DNA of 64,000 bases from the IMG/VR virus record IMGVR_UViG_3300027754_000037; one strand, written 5' to 3'. Position numbers and translations under genes: made by a program. The notes under the pieces were generated by a model. That model ran no database searches. It saw nothing but the letters and a program-made list of their open reading frames with translations, and was not told the DNA's origin. Shown here one piece after another: positions 16,726-44,700 of this stretch. Within the stretch, counting starts at the first letter, position 1. The number at the start of each line of letters is the position of its first letter. The DNA comes from a virus. Taxonomy: Duplodnaviria > Caudoviricetes.

Positions 16726-17802
16726 ATGCAAAGCCACTTTGTATTCTTTGGTTCCAAGGATTCTAAGTCCCGTCCTGAGCCTACAGACCTTGAGAAAAGG
16801 GCCAAGATTGACCGAAACAATCCAACAGCACCATTTTCCCGGTTCGTCGGGAATGATCGTGCTGTGAAGAAACTACAGGTAGCAGCATACAAGGCCTTGG
16901 GTCATCCTAACCATATGATGCGAGACTTGAGTTTCGCCATATATGGCCCCGCAAGCGCAGGCAAGACTACCCTTGCCCGCCTGTATGCCGAAACTGTGCA
17001 GTTGCCTTTCCTTGAGGTAAGTCCAAAATCACTCAAAACAGCCGATGATCTGTTCGATCAGATCAAAGTTGTCCTGAAGGATGCTGGCATTCCCCTAGTG
17101 GAAGGCAAGACAAATCACTATAAGCTACCTCCAATAGTGATTTTTATTGATGAAGTCCATGCTCTTGTGGACAGCGTGGTGCAAGGTCTGCTCAAAGCAA
17201 CCGAGTACAACGATGCAATTCTAGCAACTGAGAGTGGTAAAGTCCTTGATTGCTATGCAGCAACATGGATGATCGCCACTACAGATGAGGGAAAGTTGTT
17301 CGATGCCTTCAGAACTAGATTCAGCCCTGTGCAGTTGAAATATCTTACAAAGGATGAATTGTCCAAGATCGTTCACAAGGCTCACCCAGATTTGACATCT
17401 GAGGTGTGCGGTATTGTGGCGCACTACAACTCAAGAGTTCCACGCAAGGCACTTGAGTTTGCCCGCTACATGAAGCTTGTGCGTGAGATGGACAAGTCTA
17501 TTGATTGGAGCGAGATTGCACAGCAGGTGGCTGAGGACGAGGGTATTGACAAGTTTGGGATGTCAGAAGTCCACTTTAAGGTTCTGAAGTCCCTTGCTAC
17601 CGGCCCCGTGGCCCAGAGTCGAATGACGACTGTTGTAGGTAGAAAAATAGATGAGGTTGAGAAGTTTATCATGCCTTGGCTGATGACCGAGACTGATGAC
17701 CAACCAGCATTAGTTGGAGTTAGCCGTAGGGGTTATGTGCTGACTGATGCTGGGCGAGAACAACTCTCGCTCCGTGGGATTGATACAGCAATTGCTGCAT
17801 AG
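16726..17802 (+). CDS. ruvB: RuvB-like AAA+ branch-migration ATPase
   Basis: FVGNDR, GPASAGKTTLAR, FIDEVH, ATTDEGKLFDAFRTRF, VPRKA, GIDKFG match RuvB motif order. Confidence 0.8.
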   Translation: MQSHFVFFGSKDSKSRPEPTDLEKRAKIDRNNPTAPFSRFVGNDRAVKKLQVAAYKALGHPNHMMRDLSFAIYGPASAGKTTLARLYAETVQLPFLEVSPKSLKTADDLFDQIKVVLKDAGIPLVEGKTNHYKLPPIVIFIDEVHALVDSVVQGLLKATEYNDAILATESGKVLDCYAATWMIATTDEGKLFDAFRTRFSPVQLKYLTKDELSKIVHKAHPDLTSEVCGIVAHYNSRVPRKALEFARYMKLVREMDKSIDWSEIAQQVAEDEGIDKFGMSEVHFKVLKSLATGPVAQSRMTTVVGRKIDEVEKFIMPWLMTETDDQPALVGVSRRGYVLTDAGREQLSLRGIDTAIAA

Positions 17803-21066: not shown

Positions 21067-21738
21067 ATGTCCATGAGAAATTTTAGTGAATGGCTAAGTG
21101 ATTTTTCAGAAGTAAGTGATATTAAAATATGTGAATCCAGTTTAACCCGCATGATGTCCCTTCAGAATTCCCCTTGGTGCATCATTACAGCATACCGCAA
21201 GAAGAATTCTGACGGTACAGTTAGAAACAGAGATCAGAACATCGCTGCCAACAGGGTTCTTCGTGGAAAGTTGAACAGCATGAAGATGGGAGTACATCAG
21301 TTGATTGGGCATTGGCGTGAGTGTAAGGACAGCAATATTCCATACCCTCAATGTCCTGAAGAGATGAAAGTCGATGTAATTGAGCGGTCTTACTTTGTGG
21401 CGAAACCCCCAGAAGTGGAAATTGAAGATTTTGAAACGCTTATGCTTCAACTGTGCCGTGAATTTAACCAAGATGGAGTTTTGCTGAGTGATGGGCAATC
21501 CGTCAAGCTTGCCTATCCAAGCGGTGAAAAGGATGTAATTGGCAGCAGCAATATGGCATTGAACAAGGTTGCTCAGGCTTATAGTCAGCACATCATGAAG
21601 CAGAATGTTCCATTTGTGTTTGAAGGGTTTCAACAATTTCATGGGAATGCTGCACGGCAAGGTTCTTCCAAGAGCGGGCTAACCCTTCCACCCTTGGATG
21701 AGAACTTTGTTGTCCTTGCCGCAAAACAATTAAACTAG
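21067..21738 (+). CDS. Conserved phage hypothetical protein with MRNFSEWL motif
   Basis: CIITAYR, E.SYFV, FNQDGVL motifs; SD AGGAG. Confidence 0.6.
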   Translation: MSMRNFSEWLSDFSEVSDIKICESSLTRMMSLQNSPWCIITAYRKKNSDGTVRNRDQNIAANRVLRGKLNSMKMGVHQLIGHWRECKDSNIPYPQCPEEMKVDVIERSYFVAKPPEVEIEDFETLMLQLCREFNQDGVLLSDGQSVKLAYPSGEKDVIGSSNMALNKVAQAYSQHIMKQNVPFVFEGFQQFHGNAARQGSSKSGLTLPPLDENFVVLAAKQLN

Positions 21739-22717: not shown

Positions 22718-23272
22718 ATGTCTGACTACACATCTGCCCCAGCATGTCAACTCCTCGCAACGCATTGCTGCGTTTGCGGGCGACCCCTAGTTGACGCAAT
22801 TAGCGTCAGCTTGGGTATCGGCCCTGAGTGCAGGGGCGGGGCCAATGGCGGGATCACTTCCGAGCAGCAGGAAGCTGCAAACAAAATCACCTTCCTTGCT
22901 GCAATTGCAGCGCAGGAGGGGAAGATTGAGGAGGTGCGGGGTCATGCCGATGCCTTGCGGGTGCTGGGACTCAGCGTTTTGGCAGAAAAGGTGGCCGAGA
23001 GGTTCACCAAAGCCGAAAGGCAGGCCAAAATCTCCATCGTTGAGGATGGCGATATCCTCAAGGTGGACACCCCTTTCCGCCGTGGCGATAAGGATGCCTT
23101 TATTGCGGCATGGAGGGGCATTCCCGGTCGCCGTTACAAGAACGGGGCCAACTTGATCCCCAAGTCTGAAAAGCAGGCCTTGTATGGCCTGCTCCAGCAG
23201 TTCTTCCCCGGCCAGTATGCTGTGGGGCCGAAGGGGGTTTTCCGAATTCCCAAGCCAGAAGTCGAGGCCTAA
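22718..23272 (+). CDS. DUF6011-like Zn-binding protein
   Basis: CCVCGRPLVDAISVSLGIGPEC. Confidence 0.7.
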   Translation: MSDYTSAPACQLLATHCCVCGRPLVDAISVSLGIGPECRGGANGGITSEQQEAANKITFLAAIAAQEGKIEEVRGHADALRVLGLSVLAEKVAERFTKAERQAKISIVEDGDILKVDTPFRRGDKDAFIAAWRGIPGRRYKNGANLIPKSEKQALYGLLQQFFPGQYAVGPKGVFRIPKPEVEA

Positions 23273-23626: not shown

Positions 23627-23865
23627 TGAGATGAAAATGAAAGTCGATGCTGACAAGGTTATTGATCTTTACCCCTTTCCGCCGTGGCGATAAGGATGCC
23701 TTCATTGCTGCGTGGAGAGGAATTCCCGGTCGCCGTTACAAGAACGGGGCCAACTTGATCCCTAGAACTGAGAAGCAGGCCTTGTATGGCCTGCTCCAGC
23801 AATTCTTCCCCGGCCAGTATGCTGTGGGGCCGAAAGGGGTTTTCCGAATTCCCAAGCCGGAATAA
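23627..23865 (+). pseudogene. Chimeric relic: 5' end of the 23974 gene joined to the 3' third of the 22718 gene
   Basis: 23627-23670 matches 23968-24011; 23671-23860 matches about 23070-23260. Confidence 0.75.
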
Positions 23866-24757: not shown

Positions 24758-24956
24758 AGATAGATTCTGCCAGAGATATGCCAGAGGGATGCAACAGCAT
24801 CCCTCTTTTTTTTGTCCAGAATTTAGACTGATTGTACCTACAGGCCCCCTTGCGGGAAAGTAAGGAAAATATTTTAAAAAATTCTGCAATTTAATTGTAT
24901 TTTTAAAACGGAACTTCCTGTAAAGCTTTGTCAGAAGTAATCTAAAGGAGTAACCC

Positions 24957-25763
24957 ATGCGTCAAGCATTGTTTTTGCTGGCAGATGAGATCAGCAAGGC
25001 TGTTCTCAAGCAGTCTTACAAGAACATCCCTGACCAGATCAAGGCTGGGATGTTATTGCATGAGCAGAAACCATTTTACAACAAGAATGTGGGTCTGACC
25101 CACCTTGTTGTTGTGGCTATCCTGCACCAAATTTTTCATGAAAGGGGTGTAAAGTACAAATCTAGTGAGGTGCTGGAATTACCAGCAGTCAGGAACGCCT
25201 TGCTGGTAAAACATACCTTCAAGACTGCTGAAGGTAAACTGTTTTTTGCGGGCGGGATGTCTACCTTCACCCCTGACCCCATTGATGCACTTGCTGGAAA
25301 CATATTGAATTTTTTCGTGGAGAATGGTTGCCATAACTGTGGTTATGGCACCATCAAGACCGAGGATGACTTGGTTTGTCCCGTCTGTCTTGATGGAGAA
25401 GTCCGCAAGAAAATGTTGGCAGTATATGGGTCTTCTTTTGCTGATGAATCTTGGCATATCCTGAGTGAAGCGATTGGTCCAGATTGTAGCGAGATGCTTC
25501 TGGATTTATCATCTTTCACTCACAAGTATCAAACAAGTAAGCACTTTCTGAAAGCGGTGACAGCTTTGATGTTCAAGGATGAGGATCACGATGTTGATCC
25601 TCAATCTGAGGGGCTGTTGGAAGAAGAGTTTGGCACTTTCATCAGCGCCGATCTTGAAAAGCTTCTTGACATTCCTTTCCCGATGGGGACCGCCAAGCAA
25701 ATCCTCGAGCAGGTGGACGAGTCGTACGACGATGACTTGGGTTTTAAAGGCAACGACGAATAA
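24957..25763 (+). CDS. Hypothetical protein with Zn-ribbon, first gene of the Ubl-conjugation operon
   Basis: CHNCG..CPVC; after promoter copy 9. Confidence 0.6.
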   Translation: MRQALFLLADEISKAVLKQSYKNIPDQIKAGMLLHEQKPFYNKNVGLTHLVVVAILHQIFHERGVKYKSSEVLELPAVRNALLVKHTFKTAEGKLFFAGGMSTFTPDPIDALAGNILNFFVENGCHNCGYGTIKTEDDLVCPVCLDGEVRKKMLAVYGSSFADESWHILSEAIGPDCSEMLLDLSSFTHKYQTSKHFLKAVTALMFKDEDHDVDPQSEGLLEEEFGTFISADLEKLLDIPFPMGTAKQILEQVDESYDDDLGFKGNDE

Positions 25764-25794
25764 TTTTTCTAAACGCAAGAAAAGGAGTGCAACC

Positions 25795-27237
25795 ATGAGT
25801 TCAAGTGAAGTTGTTGACAAAGTCGTCAAAAGGATGCAATGGCAAGAAGATCGGCAGATGATGTCGATTCTTGATGCAATCACGGAAGGAACCGTGAGAG
25901 GTATCAGAGAAAGCCTGAAGGTTACTGTTGAGGAACAGACCGCTGGAGCGGTTCAGGCATTTGTCTCTGACACTAGTGTGCGTCTCATTGATGTGGCAAC
26001 TTCTTGGACTAACGAGCAGTCCAAGAAGTTGATTGTATTTCCTGTTGGCACACGCTATGTGCAGAGGGATGATAAGAGTACCAACATCGTCATTGAGGAA
26101 GCGCCTCGTTGCAGACGGGTCGCTTTCAATGACCGAAATGGTGATGTCAAGCATTATTATGTTTCCTTGCCATACATCCAGTATGTCATCACCTTTAGTA
26201 AACACGGGCGTGGTGAAAAGTTTCGGCAGATGAAAATCAGTTGTAGCAAGCAACCAATCGATTCATTGACATCGATTGTTTATGATCTTCCTTTGCCGAA
26301 CATGGGTTATGGAAACCGCTTTGGTGTATGTACTGGAGGCAGTTCAAGTGGCATGGAATTGCCTGAAGGGAGCGATGCTTTCACCGAGAAGTGTGAAACG
26401 CTGATCACTAGTTTTTGGAGCAGCGAGTTCAACACCGATCTCAGTTCCAATTTGGTGAGCTTCTTTCAGAAGAATTTTGGCTACGATACTCTGGAGGGGC
26501 AGCACCCTATTCAGCGTATTCACAATTGCTTCAGCAATTGGGCAGAGGTTTCCAAGCAGCACCCAATGTGGTCTTTGGGTGCTGATGTGAAATTGCCACA
26601 GGAGGCAGGGTGGCAGCTTGGTAGGCTCATCGATAGCGACTTGACCAGTCGTGGCAGCAAGGCAGCGATGACTCGCAACCTGAAACAACAGGTTACCGAG
26701 GGGTTGTTTGCCTTGTCTACTAATGCTGTCGATGCCATGCGGACTCTTTCCATCGAGGAACAGGGTCAGCTTTTGGCCAACAAGCAGAAGTTGGCTGAGT
26801 GTTATCGTAGCAATCTTCATTCCGCCTATTCGGTTCTTGAAGCCGAGACTATGGCTGGCTTTGAGGAATTCAAGTTGAAGGAGTTGGAGAAGGTTCAACA
26901 GGATCGTCGCAAGGTCGATGAGATGGTGCGAAAGATCGCTGAGGACCGTCAGAAGTTTGATTTAGAGATGCTCAAGACCAAGATTGAGCTTTCTGCTGTC
27001 CACAAATTTTTGGAGGCTGAAAAGGTCAAGGTTGCGCTAATACAGGCGCAGGCAGAGGAGATCATTGCTCGTGGTGTTGTTGCTATTGAGCCTGTAGTCA
27101 AGCGTGGTCGTGGTCGGCCTCGCAAGGAAAAGCCTCCTGTTCCTCTGGGACCGGATGGCCAACCCATCAATCGGGGTCGTGGTCGGCCCCGCAAGACCCC
27201 GATTGTTCTTCGTCACGCATCACTTATGAGGAGCTAA
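25795..27237 (+). CDS. Prokaryotic E2-like (Prok-E2 family D / PRTRC protein B-like) fused to coiled coil and two AT-hooks
   Basis: SLPYIQY, DLPLPNM..GVCTGG (candidate catalytic Cys), FWSSEFNTDL; C-terminal KRGRGRPRK and RGRGRPRK. Confidence 0.7.
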   Translation: MSSSEVVDKVVKRMQWQEDRQMMSILDAITEGTVRGIRESLKVTVEEQTAGAVQAFVSDTSVRLIDVATSWTNEQSKKLIVFPVGTRYVQRDDKSTNIVIEEAPRCRRVAFNDRNGDVKHYYVSLPYIQYVITFSKHGRGEKFRQMKISCSKQPIDSLTSIVYDLPLPNMGYGNRFGVCTGGSSSGMELPEGSDAFTEKCETLITSFWSSEFNTDLSSNLVSFFQKNFGYDTLEGQHPIQRIHNCFSNWAEVSKQHPMWSLGADVKLPQEAGWQLGRLIDSDLTSRGSKAAMTRNLKQQVTEGLFALSTNAVDAMRTLSIEEQGQLLANKQKLAECYRSNLHSAYSVLEAETMAGFEEFKLKELEKVQQDRRKVDEMVRKIAEDRQKFDLEMLKTKIELSAVHKFLEAEKVKVALIQAQAEEIIARGVVAIEPVVKRGRGRPRKEKPPVPLGPDGQPINRGRGRPRKTPIVLRHASLMRS

Positions 27238-27238
27238 G

Positions 27239-28264
27239 ATGATTAATTTTCCCGTGTTCCTGAATATTCCCGGCACCAAGCTGCCTGAAACCGGAATCTA
27301 CTATGTGGTTGCCAAGGACGGCATCTACATGAGGACAGACAGGAACTTTGGAAGTGCATTGGTCAAGGTTGAAGAAATTCCTCACCTTGCTGCTGCTCCC
27401 ACTCAAGCAAGTTTCAACCTTCCCAAGATTCCAGCAACGATCATTGGGCAGGCATTGATGTTCTTCCGTGAAGTGTTCGTTGAGTACAAAACGGAGAGCT
27501 ATTTGACCCTTCTGTATTCCAAGAAATTGGGTCAGTATCGTCTGTGGTGCCCCAAACAGGAAGTCAGCTACAGTTCTGTCAGCTATGACAGAACTGACAG
27601 CGTTCCTGTCGAGGAGCGGAATTACATGGGTAGCGATGGTCCCGGCTGGCAAAATGTGGGGACTATTCACTCCCATTGTGACTTCTCAGCTTTCCACAGC
27701 GGTACGGATGAGTTTGATGAATCCACCTTTGATGGAATTCACATCACCCTTGGCCATGTGAACCGCAATGATTTCAGCATTGTGGCTAGCATTGCCATCA
27801 ACGACAACCGCTTCCCGAAGGCGATTGCCGATGTGTGTGATGGTGTGCCCAACACTTCTTCCGAAGTTGTTGAGGAAGAGGGAGATGGTCCATTCAAAGG
27901 TCAGATATTCAAGCGTCAAGAGTTGTACCACCGTCTTGCGCTGAACGACGAGCAGCAGGCATGGTTGGAAAACGAATTGGAGATAACCATCCGAAATGAA
28001 TGGTTGCCCAAGGTCACTAGAAAGATCTCGAGACACCCCAAGGGAATTAGTCGCCTTGGACTGAGCGTGGAAGAGGTAGAGTGTGAGGAGTTCGAGTTCG
28101 ATGGACTGGAGCAGGGCTTGTTCCCTGACTCCGGTCCAAGGATCGAAGATGGAATATATGTTGATGAAGATGAGATATCATTTGATCCTACTGAACGGCA
28201 ACTCCGTAGTTTTGGATATCGTCGTGATGAACATGGTTTCAAGTATCGGCATGAAGGTGATTAG
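27239..28264 (+). CDS. JAB/JAMM metallopeptidase (PRTRC protein A-like deconjugase)
   Basis: YYVVAKDGIY, E..L, GTIHSHCDFSAFHSGTDEFDE fits the HxH-x7-S-x2-D motif. Confidence 0.85.
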   Translation: MINFPVFLNIPGTKLPETGIYYVVAKDGIYMRTDRNFGSALVKVEEIPHLAAAPTQASFNLPKIPATIIGQALMFFREVFVEYKTESYLTLLYSKKLGQYRLWCPKQEVSYSSVSYDRTDSVPVEERNYMGSDGPGWQNVGTIHSHCDFSAFHSGTDEFDESTFDGIHITLGHVNRNDFSIVASIAINDNRFPKAIADVCDGVPNTSSEVVEEEGDGPFKGQIFKRQELYHRLALNDEQQAWLENELEITIRNEWLPKVTRKISRHPKGISRLGLSVEEVECEEFEFDGLEQGLFPDSGPRIEDGIYVDEDEISFDPTERQLRSFGYRRDEHGFKYRHEGD

Positions 28265-28335
28265 TTCGGAAAATATTTTTTGAGTTAATTGTATTTTTGA
28301 AACGAAACTTCCTGTAGTCCTTTGTGGAGGTGTTA

Positions 28336-29073
28336 ATGGCAAACAACATCAAGGTGATTGGTGCTGGTGGCATAGGACTGTGCGTGTTGCCGGTCCTATG
28401 CCGGTTTTTAAACTTCGAGGACGAGACTTTTCCCGAACCTGTTCTCACCGTGGTTGACGGCGACCAGTACGAGGAGAATAATCGTGCTCGTCAAGAGTTC
28501 GAGGATTGTGGCCCCAAGTCAACCATCACGGTTGAGAGGTTGAGGGGTCAATTTCCTCGAATTGAGTTTAGAGACAAGTCCGAGTTCGTTGATGATGCGA
28601 ATGTCGGATTGATTGTCCGTGAAGGAGATGTGGTTTTACTCTGTGTGGACAACCACAAGAGTAGGAAGATCGTGAGTGATCGTGCTTGTCAGTTGCGCAA
28701 TGTCACCGTGATTAGTGGTGGTAATGACCGGACTGACGGCAATGTGCTCATCCACATTCGTCGTGGCGGGGTTGACTTGACCCCGCCATTGGCGAGTCAC
28801 TACCATCCCGAGATCAGTAATCCTACTGATCTCCATCCTCATGAGCACAATCAGCCGGGGAGTTGTTCCCGGCTTGCTGAGGAAGTTCCTCAGTTGGTGA
28901 TCATGAATAATCTAATCGCTGCAAAAATGCTTGCAGCTTTTTACACTCTCACCGATCCCGTGTTATATTCGGAACAGGTGGAAAAAAAACCGCATCGATA
29001 TGCGGAGGTGCTGTGTGATCTCAGCACTTTGACTAGTGTAGTTCGTGACCGGCATGTAAAAAGAGGAGCATGA
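28336..29073 (+). CDS. ThiF/E1-like adenylating enzyme
   Basis: VIGAGGIG, VDGDQYEENNRARQ, LLCVDNHKSR, SGGN, GSC..VPQL..N. Confidence 0.9.
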   Translation: MANNIKVIGAGGIGLCVLPVLCRFLNFEDETFPEPVLTVVDGDQYEENNRARQEFEDCGPKSTITVERLRGQFPRIEFRDKSEFVDDANVGLIVREGDVVLLCVDNHKSRKIVSDRACQLRNVTVISGGNDRTDGNVLIHIRRGGVDLTPPLASHYHPEISNPTDLHPHEHNQPGSCSRLAEEVPQLVIMNNLIAAKMLAAFYTLTDPVLYSEQVEKKPHRYAEVLCDLSTLTSVVRDRHVKRGA

Positions 29074-29381
29074 AAATGAGCGACCAAAATCAGAACCCCA
29101 CCAATGGTTTTGCCAACAGCCCTGATGCCCAGAGTGTCGATGTTCTAGGTGTGTTGAGCGGGTTACAGGCAAGCAACTGCAAGGTTGTTCACGGTGCTGC
29201 CGAGGGCATCCACCCAGTTGCCCTAAATAGCGTGAGTGCTGTTCGTGGGACATTTTCGGTGGCATACAACATCCCCGCTGACGCTTTGTCCTTTGTGGAT
29301 GGAGTTTCGGTTGCGGAAGATTACATCCTCCAGCCTAACGAAACGCTGGAGTTCATCAAGCAGGCGGGCGTGAAGGGTTAA
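29070..29381 (+). CDS. Ubiquitin-like (beta-grasp) protein ending AGVKG
   Basis: VDG..V..DYILQPNETLEFIKQAGVKG; overlaps the E1 stop; terminator follows at about 29404-29442. Confidence 0.75.
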   Translation: MKMSDQNQNPTNGFANSPDAQSVDVLGVLSGLQASNCKVVHGAAEGIHPVALNSVSAVRGTFSVAYNIPADALSFVDGVSVAEDYILQPNETLEFIKQAGVKG

Positions 29382-29559
29382 TCGCCCTTCGCCCGTTCTC
29401 TCTGCCCCCGCAAGGCCCACAAAGCCTTGCGGGGGTTTTTTATGTCGGGACCAAACTGCAAGCCTCAGAAAAATTCTAGAAAAAAATTGAATTTAATTGT
29501 ATTTTTGAAACAGAACTTCCTTATCACTTTGTATAGAGTTAAACAAAAGGAGGTGAGCC

Positions 29560-37746: not shown

Positions 37747-37965
37747 ATGAGCAATCGAGTTGGACGACCCGACAAATTTGCACCAAAGCAAGTGAAACAA
37801 TTGAAGCAGATCGTGTCAATATATGGTCTGCGCAAGGGCCGACAAGTTCTTAATCGACTTGGAATCCAAGTCAGCTTGCCGACTTTGAGCAAATACATCG
37901 GCAGCACTAGCTGTGGGAAACCTCTGGTTCTTAAGCGTGGTCGCCCAGTTAAAGTGGAGGCTTAA
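37747..37965 (+). CDS. Small basic, possibly HTH DNA-binding protein
   Basis: GRP..F and KRGRP motifs; VSLPTLSKY helix. Confidence 0.5.
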   Translation: MSNRVGRPDKFAPKQVKQLKQIVSIYGLRKGRQVLNRLGIQVSLPTLSKYIGSTSCGKPLVLKRGRPVKVEA

Positions 37966-43172: not shown

Positions 43173-43598
43173 CCCGCACCTACTGAGATTCTCCCAGCCC
43201 GCCACCCAGAAAGTGGCGGGCCTTTTTTTGTTTCATAAACAATACAGATAAAAGTAGTTTACTATTATTGTTTGTCTGGAAAATATATAAGATAAAAATA
43301 GTTTAAATATATTTTTACAAAAAAAATAATTAAACAATTAATAATGAAAAAGTTTTAGACTATGGGATACCCCCCTACCCCCCTACCCGCTATGACTGTC
43401 TTCCTTTTGATTCACTCCTTAGCCCTTTTTTGGCCACGGGGATTGTTGCAAATTTTCGTCCCCAACAATTTATGAATTATCCCATATGGGCTGGAAAGTC
43501 AATCGGGGTGGCATCCTAAAAAAATGCGCCGGGAGGTTTTTTGATTTTGGAGGGAGGGTTTTTGGGTGGTTTGGGAGGCGAAAAGAAGATTGTTTGTT

Positions 43599-43833
43599 CC
43601 TAGAGCAATAGGGGAAGCTCCTGAAGCAATAGGGGAAGCTCCTAGAGCAATAGGGGAAGCTCCTGAAGCAATAGGGGAAGCTCCTGAAGCAATAGGGGAA
43701 GCTCCTGAAGCAATGGGGGAAGCTCCTGAAGCAATGGGGGAAGCTCCTGAAGCAATGGGGGGAAGCTCCTGAAGCAATGGGGGGAAGCTCCTGAAGCAAT
43801 AGGGGAAGCTCCTGAATCAATGGGGGAAGCTCA
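43599..43833. repeat. About 11 x 21(22)-bp tandem array GCAAT(A/G)GGGGAAGCTCCT(GAA/AGA)
   Basis: Read directly; no spacers. Confidence 0.9.
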
Positions 43834-44700
43834 TCACTTTGGCAGGAAGACTCTTTTCATATGATCTAAATCTGTTTCAAAAGGGTTTTTGCTTGATCCC
43901 GGTATGTCCTTGATAACCTTTTCGAGACCTCCCTTGGAATCGACATTACGGAAGAACTCCAAATCCTTATCTGCTCTGCTTGTGCTTGGATAAACCGATC
44001 TGGCATCTATATTTCCAAATTGGTCCTTGGAGCTCCTGTTATAAGTTGGATCGTATCCAGAAGTTGTTGGCCTTAGAGCATCAAATGCTTGTCCTATCAA
44101 ATCATTAGCTTTTTCGCTGGAATCCATTAAGAATTTACCTGCTTTTTTGATTGGATCTGTCAATCCAAAAAGTTCTAAAGCTTTCTTTACCAGCCATATA
44201 GCTGCATCTGCTGAAGATTTGACAACTGCTTGGAAAGCTGGCCAAAGGTATTCGGTGCCTATCCATTTGAATAATGTTCCTATCTTGTCAGCAAGTGGTG
44301 CCAAGAAAGGGAAAAGAGACCTGATTGCGTCAAAGCGGAAACCAAGGTATATGATGGCAGCAACGAATGTGATCAATCCCACTTTCTTGATGATACTCCA
44401 GATCATGGAGAGTGGTCCGCTGGGTTTCTCGATTTTAGCCTCGTCTTCCTTTGTAATTTTGGCGTTTTTGGCTTGAGGAGACTTGGAGAGCATCTTCATG
44501 GCCAAACTTGGCAGGAAGAAGAATTCGTTTAATTTCTGGCATTCAATATCAACTATCATTCTTTCCTGAATGCTCATGCTGTTGTAGAGGTTATTGAGAA
44601 CTTTTTCCTCCAAGTCTTTGGATTCTTGGATGGACAATCCAGATTTTTTCAGGATGGACCTTTCTATTTCTTTGCAGCGATATTGATCAAGATTTAGCAT
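43834..44700 (-). CDS. Hypothetical protein with central hydrophobic/amphipathic segment
   Basis: Likely start MLNLDQY with SD AAGGA. Confidence 0.55.
   Translation of the reverse strand: MLNLDQYRCKEIERSILKKSGLSIQESKDLEEKVLNNLYNSMSIQERMIVDIECQKLNEFFFLPSLAMKMLSKSPQAKNAKITKEDEAKIEKPSGPLSMIWSIIKKVGLITFVAAIIYLGFRFDAIRSLFPFLAPLADKIGTLFKWIGTEYLWPAFQAVVKSSADAAIWLVKKALELFGLTDPIKKAGKFLMDSSEKANDLIGQAFDALRPTTSGYDPTYNRSSKDQFGNIDARSVYPSTSRADKDLEFFRNVDSKGGLEKVIKDIPGSSKNPFETDLDHMKRVFLPK

Follow-up and report, generated by a model that had tools for sequence, protein, structure and literature searches.

How does a ubiquitin-like conjugation cassette that carries no recognizable E3 choose what it tags? This question is raised by a gene in a 64,000-nucleotide stretch of phage DNA (hereafter the window), whose product had been described in a first-pass annotation as an E2-like domain fused to a coiled coil and two AT-hooks, possibly tethered to DNA so as to act as its own E3. 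The window belongs to a 144-kb IMG/VR contig (33% complete by CheckV), and a baseplate wedge gene in the record (phrog_219, 7.5e-29) indicates a large tailed phage. None of the cassettes examined has a recognizable E3, and BilABCD conjugates without one, its E2 being proposed to choose the targets (10.1101/2023.09.26.559546); on these two grounds, we read the phage cassette as E3-free. The cassette type was predicted in 2006 as family D (PF14460), operon type 6d, of the PRTRC type (Iyer, Burroughs, Aravind, PMC1779556). Our literature searches found no substrate assigned to family-D/PRTRC ubiquitin-like cassettes, and no binding or conjugation data for any family-D E2. For target choice by E3-free bacterial systems, a short and removable tail would be a concrete handle, as it predicts the location of the enzyme and the proteins tagged.

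Gene and domain layout

The E2-like gene spans 25795 to 27237 on the plus strand and encodes 480 amino acids, preceded by the Shine-Dalgarno sequence AAGGAG at 25782 to 25787. The frame is open from 25579, and a 552-aa product starting there was considered and rejected, since the close homologs start at the methionine at 25795 and the Shine-Dalgarno sequence agrees. AlphaFold (127-sequence alignment, mean pLDDT 85, pTM 0.57) parses the protein into a long N-terminal helix (residues 3 to 76, 25801 to 26022), a beta-rich domain at about residues 77 to 282 (26023 to 26640), a helical stalk made of helix 286 to 317 and the continuous helix 323 to 425 (26641 to 27069), and a disordered tail, all on the plus strand. 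The beta-rich part is the E2-like, UBC-fold-related catalytic domain (pLDDT 93 when modeled as a domain). In the model, the N-terminal helix, whose family occupancy is 0.7 to 0.9, probably packs against residues 283 to 354. Since a 74-residue helix precedes the domain and further helices follow it, the E2 domain sits between helices rather than at the N terminus. Of the fusion proposed in the first-pass annotation, the hooks and, at the family level, the E2 assignment stand, and the heptad signal is marginal.

The stalk deserves a closer description. The N-terminal helix and the helices after the E2 domain are common to most hookless relatives in the alignment, and beyond about residue 380 the stalk is found mostly in the long-tail clade described below, the family occupancy falling to 0.1 to 0.45. 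Helix 323 to 425 would measure about 15 nm if straight. The annotation had called this part a charged heptad region; a long continuous helix is indeed modeled there, but it is net-neutral (18 K/R and 19 D/E), and its heptad periodicity is marginal. The excess of hydrophobic residues at heptad positions a and d gave a shuffle p of 0.03 for residues 355 to 425 (uncorrected, with five segments tested) and 0.49 for residues 323 to 425. A homodimer prediction with two copies of residues 1 to 430 scored 0.19 against a mark of 0.42, which counts neither for nor against a dimer, and structural comparison of the whole model by VIA returned generic helical matches only, namely antiparallel coiled coils over residues 1 to 354 with Z up to 8.2. 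The long helix is seen in the model, and its folding into a coiled coil is plausible.

Assignment to the family-D E2-like proteins

By sequence, the ORF is a family-D prokaryotic E2-like protein, an assignment that is weak on this protein alone and holds at the level of the family. The Pfam model Prok-E2_D (PF14460) gives the single protein 15.4 bits against a cut-off of 25. A profile search retrieved 493 relatives, and the same model matches 50 of 127 relatives at E ≤ 0.01, the best at 2.8e-9 and four above the cut-off. In a family alignment of 155 proteins, 153 span the column of Cys179 and every one of them has the cysteine, and E101, P104, R107, P126, N169, G181, W208, F212, and W249 are nearly invariant. 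Cys179 (26329 to 26331, plus strand), within the motif LPN-x8-VC-x-G, is thus predicted to form the thioester. Furthermore, the family profile aligns with an E2-D protein of a Nostoc PCC 7120 plasmid (WP_010993887.1, a 162-bit PF14460 member) with an HHalign probability of 97.4 and an E value of 9e-12, cysteine on cysteine. Relatives of 650 to 820 aa were considered as E2-E2 fusions, a reading that was dropped because each holds a single E2 domain.

The classical His-Pro-Asn motif is absent from the E2. Family D was originally described as having a conserved histidine after the cysteine (Iyer, Burroughs, Aravind 2006, PMC1779556); in our family alignment, no histidine column reaches 50%, and the segment reads F-N-x-D-L. 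The aligned segment of the bona fide Nostoc protein lacks a histidine as well, so this residue is not universal in family D.

Structural searches lend the E2 fold support that is weak for any single hit. Of the top 50 VIA rows for the domain model, about 40 were E2, UEV, or RWD chains as read from their titles, including bacterial Cap2 and CdnG-E2, with Z reaching only 5.0 and rmsd values of 3.3 to 5. Foldseek gave no match at E ≤ 0.001 for the whole model or the domain, a sequence search of the PDB with the E2 gave none, and PHROGs holds no family for the E2, JAB, Ubl, or 268-aa gene.

A four-part ubiquitin-like cassette

The gene for a JAB/JAMM isopeptidase (27239 to 28264, plus strand) starts 2 nt past the E2 stop. 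It matches TIGR03735 at 1e-8 and Prok-JAB at 5.5e-4, the former covering residues 15 to 190 with 35 bits against a cut-off of 101.8. Its metal-site residues are intact (E86, H144, H146, S154, and D157 are conserved); of the features of the N-terminal JAB-N domain, a conserved Arg and a conserved Trp, R32 is conserved and no Trp column reaches 90%. Next come a ThiF/E1-like activating enzyme (28324 to 29073, plus strand; PF00899 at 3e-16, TIGR03736 at 3e-13), in which the Gly-rich loop, D45, R56, and C181 are conserved, and a ubiquitin-like modifier (Ubl) ending in G-x-K-G (29070 to 29381, plus strand; ThiS-family feature match 0.95). G100, K102, and G103 of the Ubl are conserved in 11 homologs; judged by its sequence, the Ubl has a free C-terminal glycine and requires no processing. 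The order E2-JAB-E1-Ubl and intact JAB, E1, and Ubl motifs are found in every hook-bearing locus that is long enough.

A 268-aa protein with two CxxC pairs and a very acidic C terminus is encoded just upstream of the E2 (24957 to 25763, plus strand). Many cassettes of the long-tail clade are accompanied by its gene, which lies upstream of the E2 or downstream of the Ubl, and none of the Pfam, PRTRC, and PHROG models recognizes the protein.

The cassette resembles the PRTRC type in that JAB and E1 find their best matches in TIGR03735 and TIGR03736, and it resembles the family-D locus of Nostoc PCC 7120 pCC7120beta in the motifs LPN..C.G and FW.S.FN.DL and in the order E2-JAB-E1. Operon type 6d also comprises a further alpha-helical protein, and PRTRC loci a ParB-related gene. 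ParB and the PRTRC E and F genes were not recognized in the annotated loci, the record itself being 33% complete. In contrast to the Nostoc plasmid E2-D, which is a 240-aa lone domain, the phage E2 domain interrupts a helical stalk, with a long helix and the two AT-hooks after it.

The surrounding genes are short, lie on the plus strand, and are punctuated by promoter-like repeats, which suggests an early region. A match to the S-adenosylmethionine lyase family (PF23780, 5e-7) at 21067 to 21738 (plus strand) lies in the same region and is a possible anti-restriction gene. An AAA+ ATPase gene is found at 16726 to 17802 (plus strand), and its counterpart in the closest relative (L001) matches RuvB_N and AAA. 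A 192-nt direct duplication (93%; 23069 to 23260 and 23671 to 23862) covers the 3' part of a DUF6011 gene and gives rise to a short duplicate ORF at 23647 to 23865; besides, a 21-nt unit is repeated in tandem about 11 times at 43556 to 43868.

Could the acceptor of this cassette be nucleic acid, or a small group on it, to which the Ubl, or sulfur carried on a ThiS-like Ubl, is transferred, the hooks delivering the substrate? The nearest look-alikes of the Ubl are of the ThiS family, the E1 is ThiF-like, and an E2 with neither His-Pro-Asn nor the downstream histidine may differ in its chemistry. However, the cysteines of the E2 and E1, together with a JAB whose metal site is intact and a Ubl that is mature as encoded, argue for isopeptide conjugation that can be reversed. 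The cassettes contained no recognizable sulfur donor, rhodanese, or gene for modifying nucleic acids, and a tail that binds nucleic acid is lacking in most of the family. We therefore regard transfer to nucleic acid as very unlikely.

The AT-hooks and their conservation

The cores KRGRGRPRK and NRGRGRPRK that the first-pass annotation had picked out are present at residues 436 to 444 (27100 to 27126, plus strand) and 459 to 467 (27169 to 27195, plus strand), the second preceded by a conserved DG-x-P turn. Each is an RGRP core with basic flanks and matches the HMGA-type consensus TPKRPRGRPKK (PMC11354804). The tail is basic (15 K/R to 3 D/E) and predicted to be disordered, with pLDDT below 50 at residues 422 to 441, 461 to 464, and 466 to 480 and no secondary structure after residue 425. 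The Pfam model AT_hook (PF02178) is not listed for the E2 and finds one relative at E 0.0039; when the tail is the query, PF02178 proteins are retrieved at E 1.5e-9 to 5e-5. Two RGRP motifs would occur by chance with P = 2.5e-5 in whole-protein shuffles and 6e-4 in tail-only shuffles. Across the family, 31 RGRP motifs were counted in 17 of 155 proteins against 0.32 expected, and all start within 57 residues of the C terminus.

Both hooks are kept in the four close homologs (4/4, at 56 to 95% identity), and hooks occur in most relatives at 24 to 37%; the objection that the tail might be absent from close homologs thus does not hold. In 14 distant members, the mean identity to the E2 is 63% for RGRPRK of hook 1 and 89% for that of hook 2. 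The corresponding values for other parts are 32% for the E2 core, 17 to 19% for the helices, 6 to 9% for the outer flanks, and 6% for the linker before hook 1. The hook arginines are encoded by CGN codons in some genes and by AGR codons in others, and these synonymous switches indicate that selection acts on the hook peptide.

Taken with the behavior of HMGA-type hooks, these features make it very probable that the tail binds DNA. Basic tails rich in Arg and Gly are generic polyanion binders, and the tail could also bind RNA, ribosomes, or an acidic protein partner, which would direct the E2 to soluble or RNA-bound targets. Structured RNA is indeed bound by the AT-hooks of HMGA1 and EBNA1 (PMC11354804), and the 268-aa partner has its very acidic C terminus to offer. 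On the other hand, conservation of the exact G-R-P core, twice, goes beyond charge; the 268-aa partner is kept in a hookless GC-rich subclade (L023, L041-L043); and hook loss follows genome GC, albeit in one event. Binding to RNA or to a protein is, in our estimate, unlikely, although it is the foremost of the alternatives weighed here.

Hook loss, GC content, and tail variants

Hooks are missing from 138 of the 155 relatives. They are an add-on that marks one clade, and the family as a whole does without them. Two E2 trees were built, one on the E2 core alone and the other with locus data, both being quick trees without bootstraps. The hooks cluster in one branch of the core tree, with none of 500 shuffles giving a value as low. 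The long-tail clade comprises 22 rows (SH-aLRT 94); the 17 rows with hooks derive from loci with a GC content of 38 to 54%, and the five without form a single nested clade (97) with a GC content of 61 to 65%. In the GC-rich loci that were counted, no A/T run of 12 or more was found. Loss of the hooks in a GC-rich subclade is what binding to AT-rich DNA would predict, and it represents a single loss event. AT-rich phages outside the clade (GC 25 to 41%) do without hooks, and one locus (L002) has both hooks, yet no A/T run of at least 12 in 7.3 kb.

Three kinds of tail occur in the long-tail clade: a pair of hooks, a single hook joined to a small aromatic module, and a Pro/Ala linker with an acidic-hydrophobic end. 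The single-hook variants (L034:6386-8044, L036:4576-6129; P0014, P0019, P0027) end in the aromatic module W..GS.Y.R...DG.Y..Y.WNG..W. Outside the clade, the hookless E2s of 320 to 400 aa are mostly tandem paralog pairs, and the others are lone domains of 215 to 290 aa or carry long extra segments. Two tandem paralogs precede JAB-E1-Ubl in the hookless phages L010, L011, L047, L048, L051, L053, and L062; tandem E2-like genes number six in L081 and three in L084. A constant core with variable, swapped appendages would be expected if the appendages aim the enzyme.

The distribution of the helices suggests another possibility, namely that the family-wide stalk picks the substrates and the hooks merely moonlight, holding the E2 on DNA away from its substrates or serving an architectural role. 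The N-terminal helix and the return helices are indeed family-wide and the hooks clade-limited, and hookless phages often have a tandem pair of E2 paralogs with dissimilar helical parts. The strong, long-term selection on both hooks suggests instead a positive role in targeting, as does the fact that other terminal modules take their place, where a simple truncation might have been expected otherwise. We thus consider sequestration quite unlikely.

Promoter-like repeats and a second hook-type protein

The first-pass annotation had named A/T-tract promoter elements as one target of the tethered E2. An AT-rich promoter-like repeat with the core TTAATTGTATTTTTGAAACG-AACTTCC occurs in 20 intergenic copies, all on the plus strand, between 16672 and 42515, and nowhere else in the 144-kb record. 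A/T makes up 84% of its first 32 nt, and copies lie ahead of (24869 to 24919), inside (28263 to 28313), and after (29471 to 29521) the cassette, all on the plus strand. By its sequence and placement, the repeat may act as an early promoter. It recurs in the closest relative (L001), is absent from most of the fetched hook-bearing loci (L002, L004, L008, and L032), and unrelated repeats are found in L008, L030, and L032.

AT-hooks alone have little sequence specificity. This counts against specific recognition of the early promoters, by which the E2 would tag RNA polymerase or a regulator and so switch early transcription. That reading gains from the 20 AT-rich copies spread over the early region, of which three lie within the cassette or next to it, but the repeat is common only to L001, and the four hook-bearing loci just named do without it. 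Because the repeat is not conserved among hook-bearing phages, a dedicated pairing of hooks and promoter is unlikely, and we hold promoter recognition to be improbable. The promoter-like copies could nevertheless be among the best-bound sites in the phage's own genome. The proposed tethering of the E2 to DNA is supported indirectly, by canonical cores, a disordered basic tail, conservation far above that of the flanks, and loss only in a GC-rich subclade; its promoter target is not.

A 72-aa helical protein (37747 to 37965, plus strand) carries GRP arms at both of its ends (RVGRPDKF ... KRGRPVK). Its homologs (E 3e-20) are encoded 4 to 7 kb upstream of the cassette in L008, L009, L027, L032, L033, L039, and L045. 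It is a candidate second hook-type DNA binder and a candidate substrate or partner of the E2.

Proposed mechanism

We propose that localization on DNA stands in for an E3. Early in infection, the E1 would adenylate the C-terminal glycine of the Ubl, which would pass via Cys181 of the E1 to Cys179 of the E2, as suggested by the conserved residues and by Bil/Bub biochemistry. By analogy with HMGA-type hooks, the two Arg-Gly-Arg-Pro cores of the tail would enter the minor groove wherever double-stranded DNA is AT-rich, showing little preference for a particular sequence, and the long helix would keep the catalytic head off the DNA. The Ubl-charged E2 would so be concentrated on the host nucleoid, the phage genome, or both. 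Its targets may then be DNA-bound proteins, such as nucleoid proteins, the transcription machinery, or DNA-scanning defense proteins, and JAB would reverse the tag. The scheme builds on the anatomy of the E2, its catalytic residues, the integrity of the cassette, and the selection on the hooks. For the whole chain of thioester relay, DNA tethering, and tagging of DNA-bound proteins, which draws on sequence and on analogy, we estimate a probability of roughly 0.5.

A bolder extension, which we put forward only tentatively, is that large phages of one clade place a reversible Ubl mark on nucleoid-bound host proteins, E3-free and through a DNA-reading E2 whose swappable tails re-aim the enzyme, to disarm DNA-scanning defenses or to seize transcription. 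If true, phages would tag DNA-bound proteins offensively, a mirror image of Bil defense and a parallel to eukaryotic chromatin ubiquitination.

Relation to known systems

The cassette shares four parts (Ubl, E2, JAB deubiquitinase, and E1) with the Bil/Bub bacterial ubiquitination systems (10.1101/2023.09.04.556158; 10.1101/2023.09.26.559546), of which BilABCD tags a phage tail fiber. Conjugation without an E3 is a property of BilABCD and is presumed here for the phage cassette. In contrast to the latter, BilABCD/Bub are host anti-phage defenses with another E2 family, a two-lobed E1, a Ubl that needs processing, and no DNA-binding tail.

A disordered tail that is attached to a functional domain and repeats the R-G-R-P core between basic residues is also seen in HMGA-type AT-hook proteins such as bacterial WhiB7 (PMC11354804), Myxococcus CarD (PMC2919716), and viral EBNA1, and the spacing of two hooks, 22 to 44 residues, is alike. 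Unlike the E2 enzyme, HMGA-type proteins, WhiB7, CarD, and EBNA1 are transcription, replication, or tethering factors. Our literature search, which was incomplete, found no AT-hook E2, no AT-hook bacteriophage enzyme of such kind, and no paper on a phage family-D cassette. Within the literature searched, the combination of an E2 domain, a helical stalk, and AT-hooks thus appears to be new, in a cassette type known since 2006 (PMC1779556).

A pattern-based search of bacterial and archaeal genomes, which is of low sensitivity, gave seven distant loci with matches confined to query residues up to 270, none reaching into the tail. Among cultured phages, tblastn with the E2 domain and with the E1 gave no match, and tblastn with a shorter relative of the E2 found two Bacillus phages. 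In one of these, the cultured 230-kb Bacillus jumbo phage vB_BceM_WH1, gp214 to gp216 (LC597490, L025:4881-7975) are E2-like, JAB, and ThiF proteins in the same order. In contrast to the E2 of the window, the WH1 protein has 241 aa, with neither stalk nor hooks, and is annotated as hypothetical; a NADAR gene adjoins its cassette. Phage Edson has an E2 similar to that of WH1.
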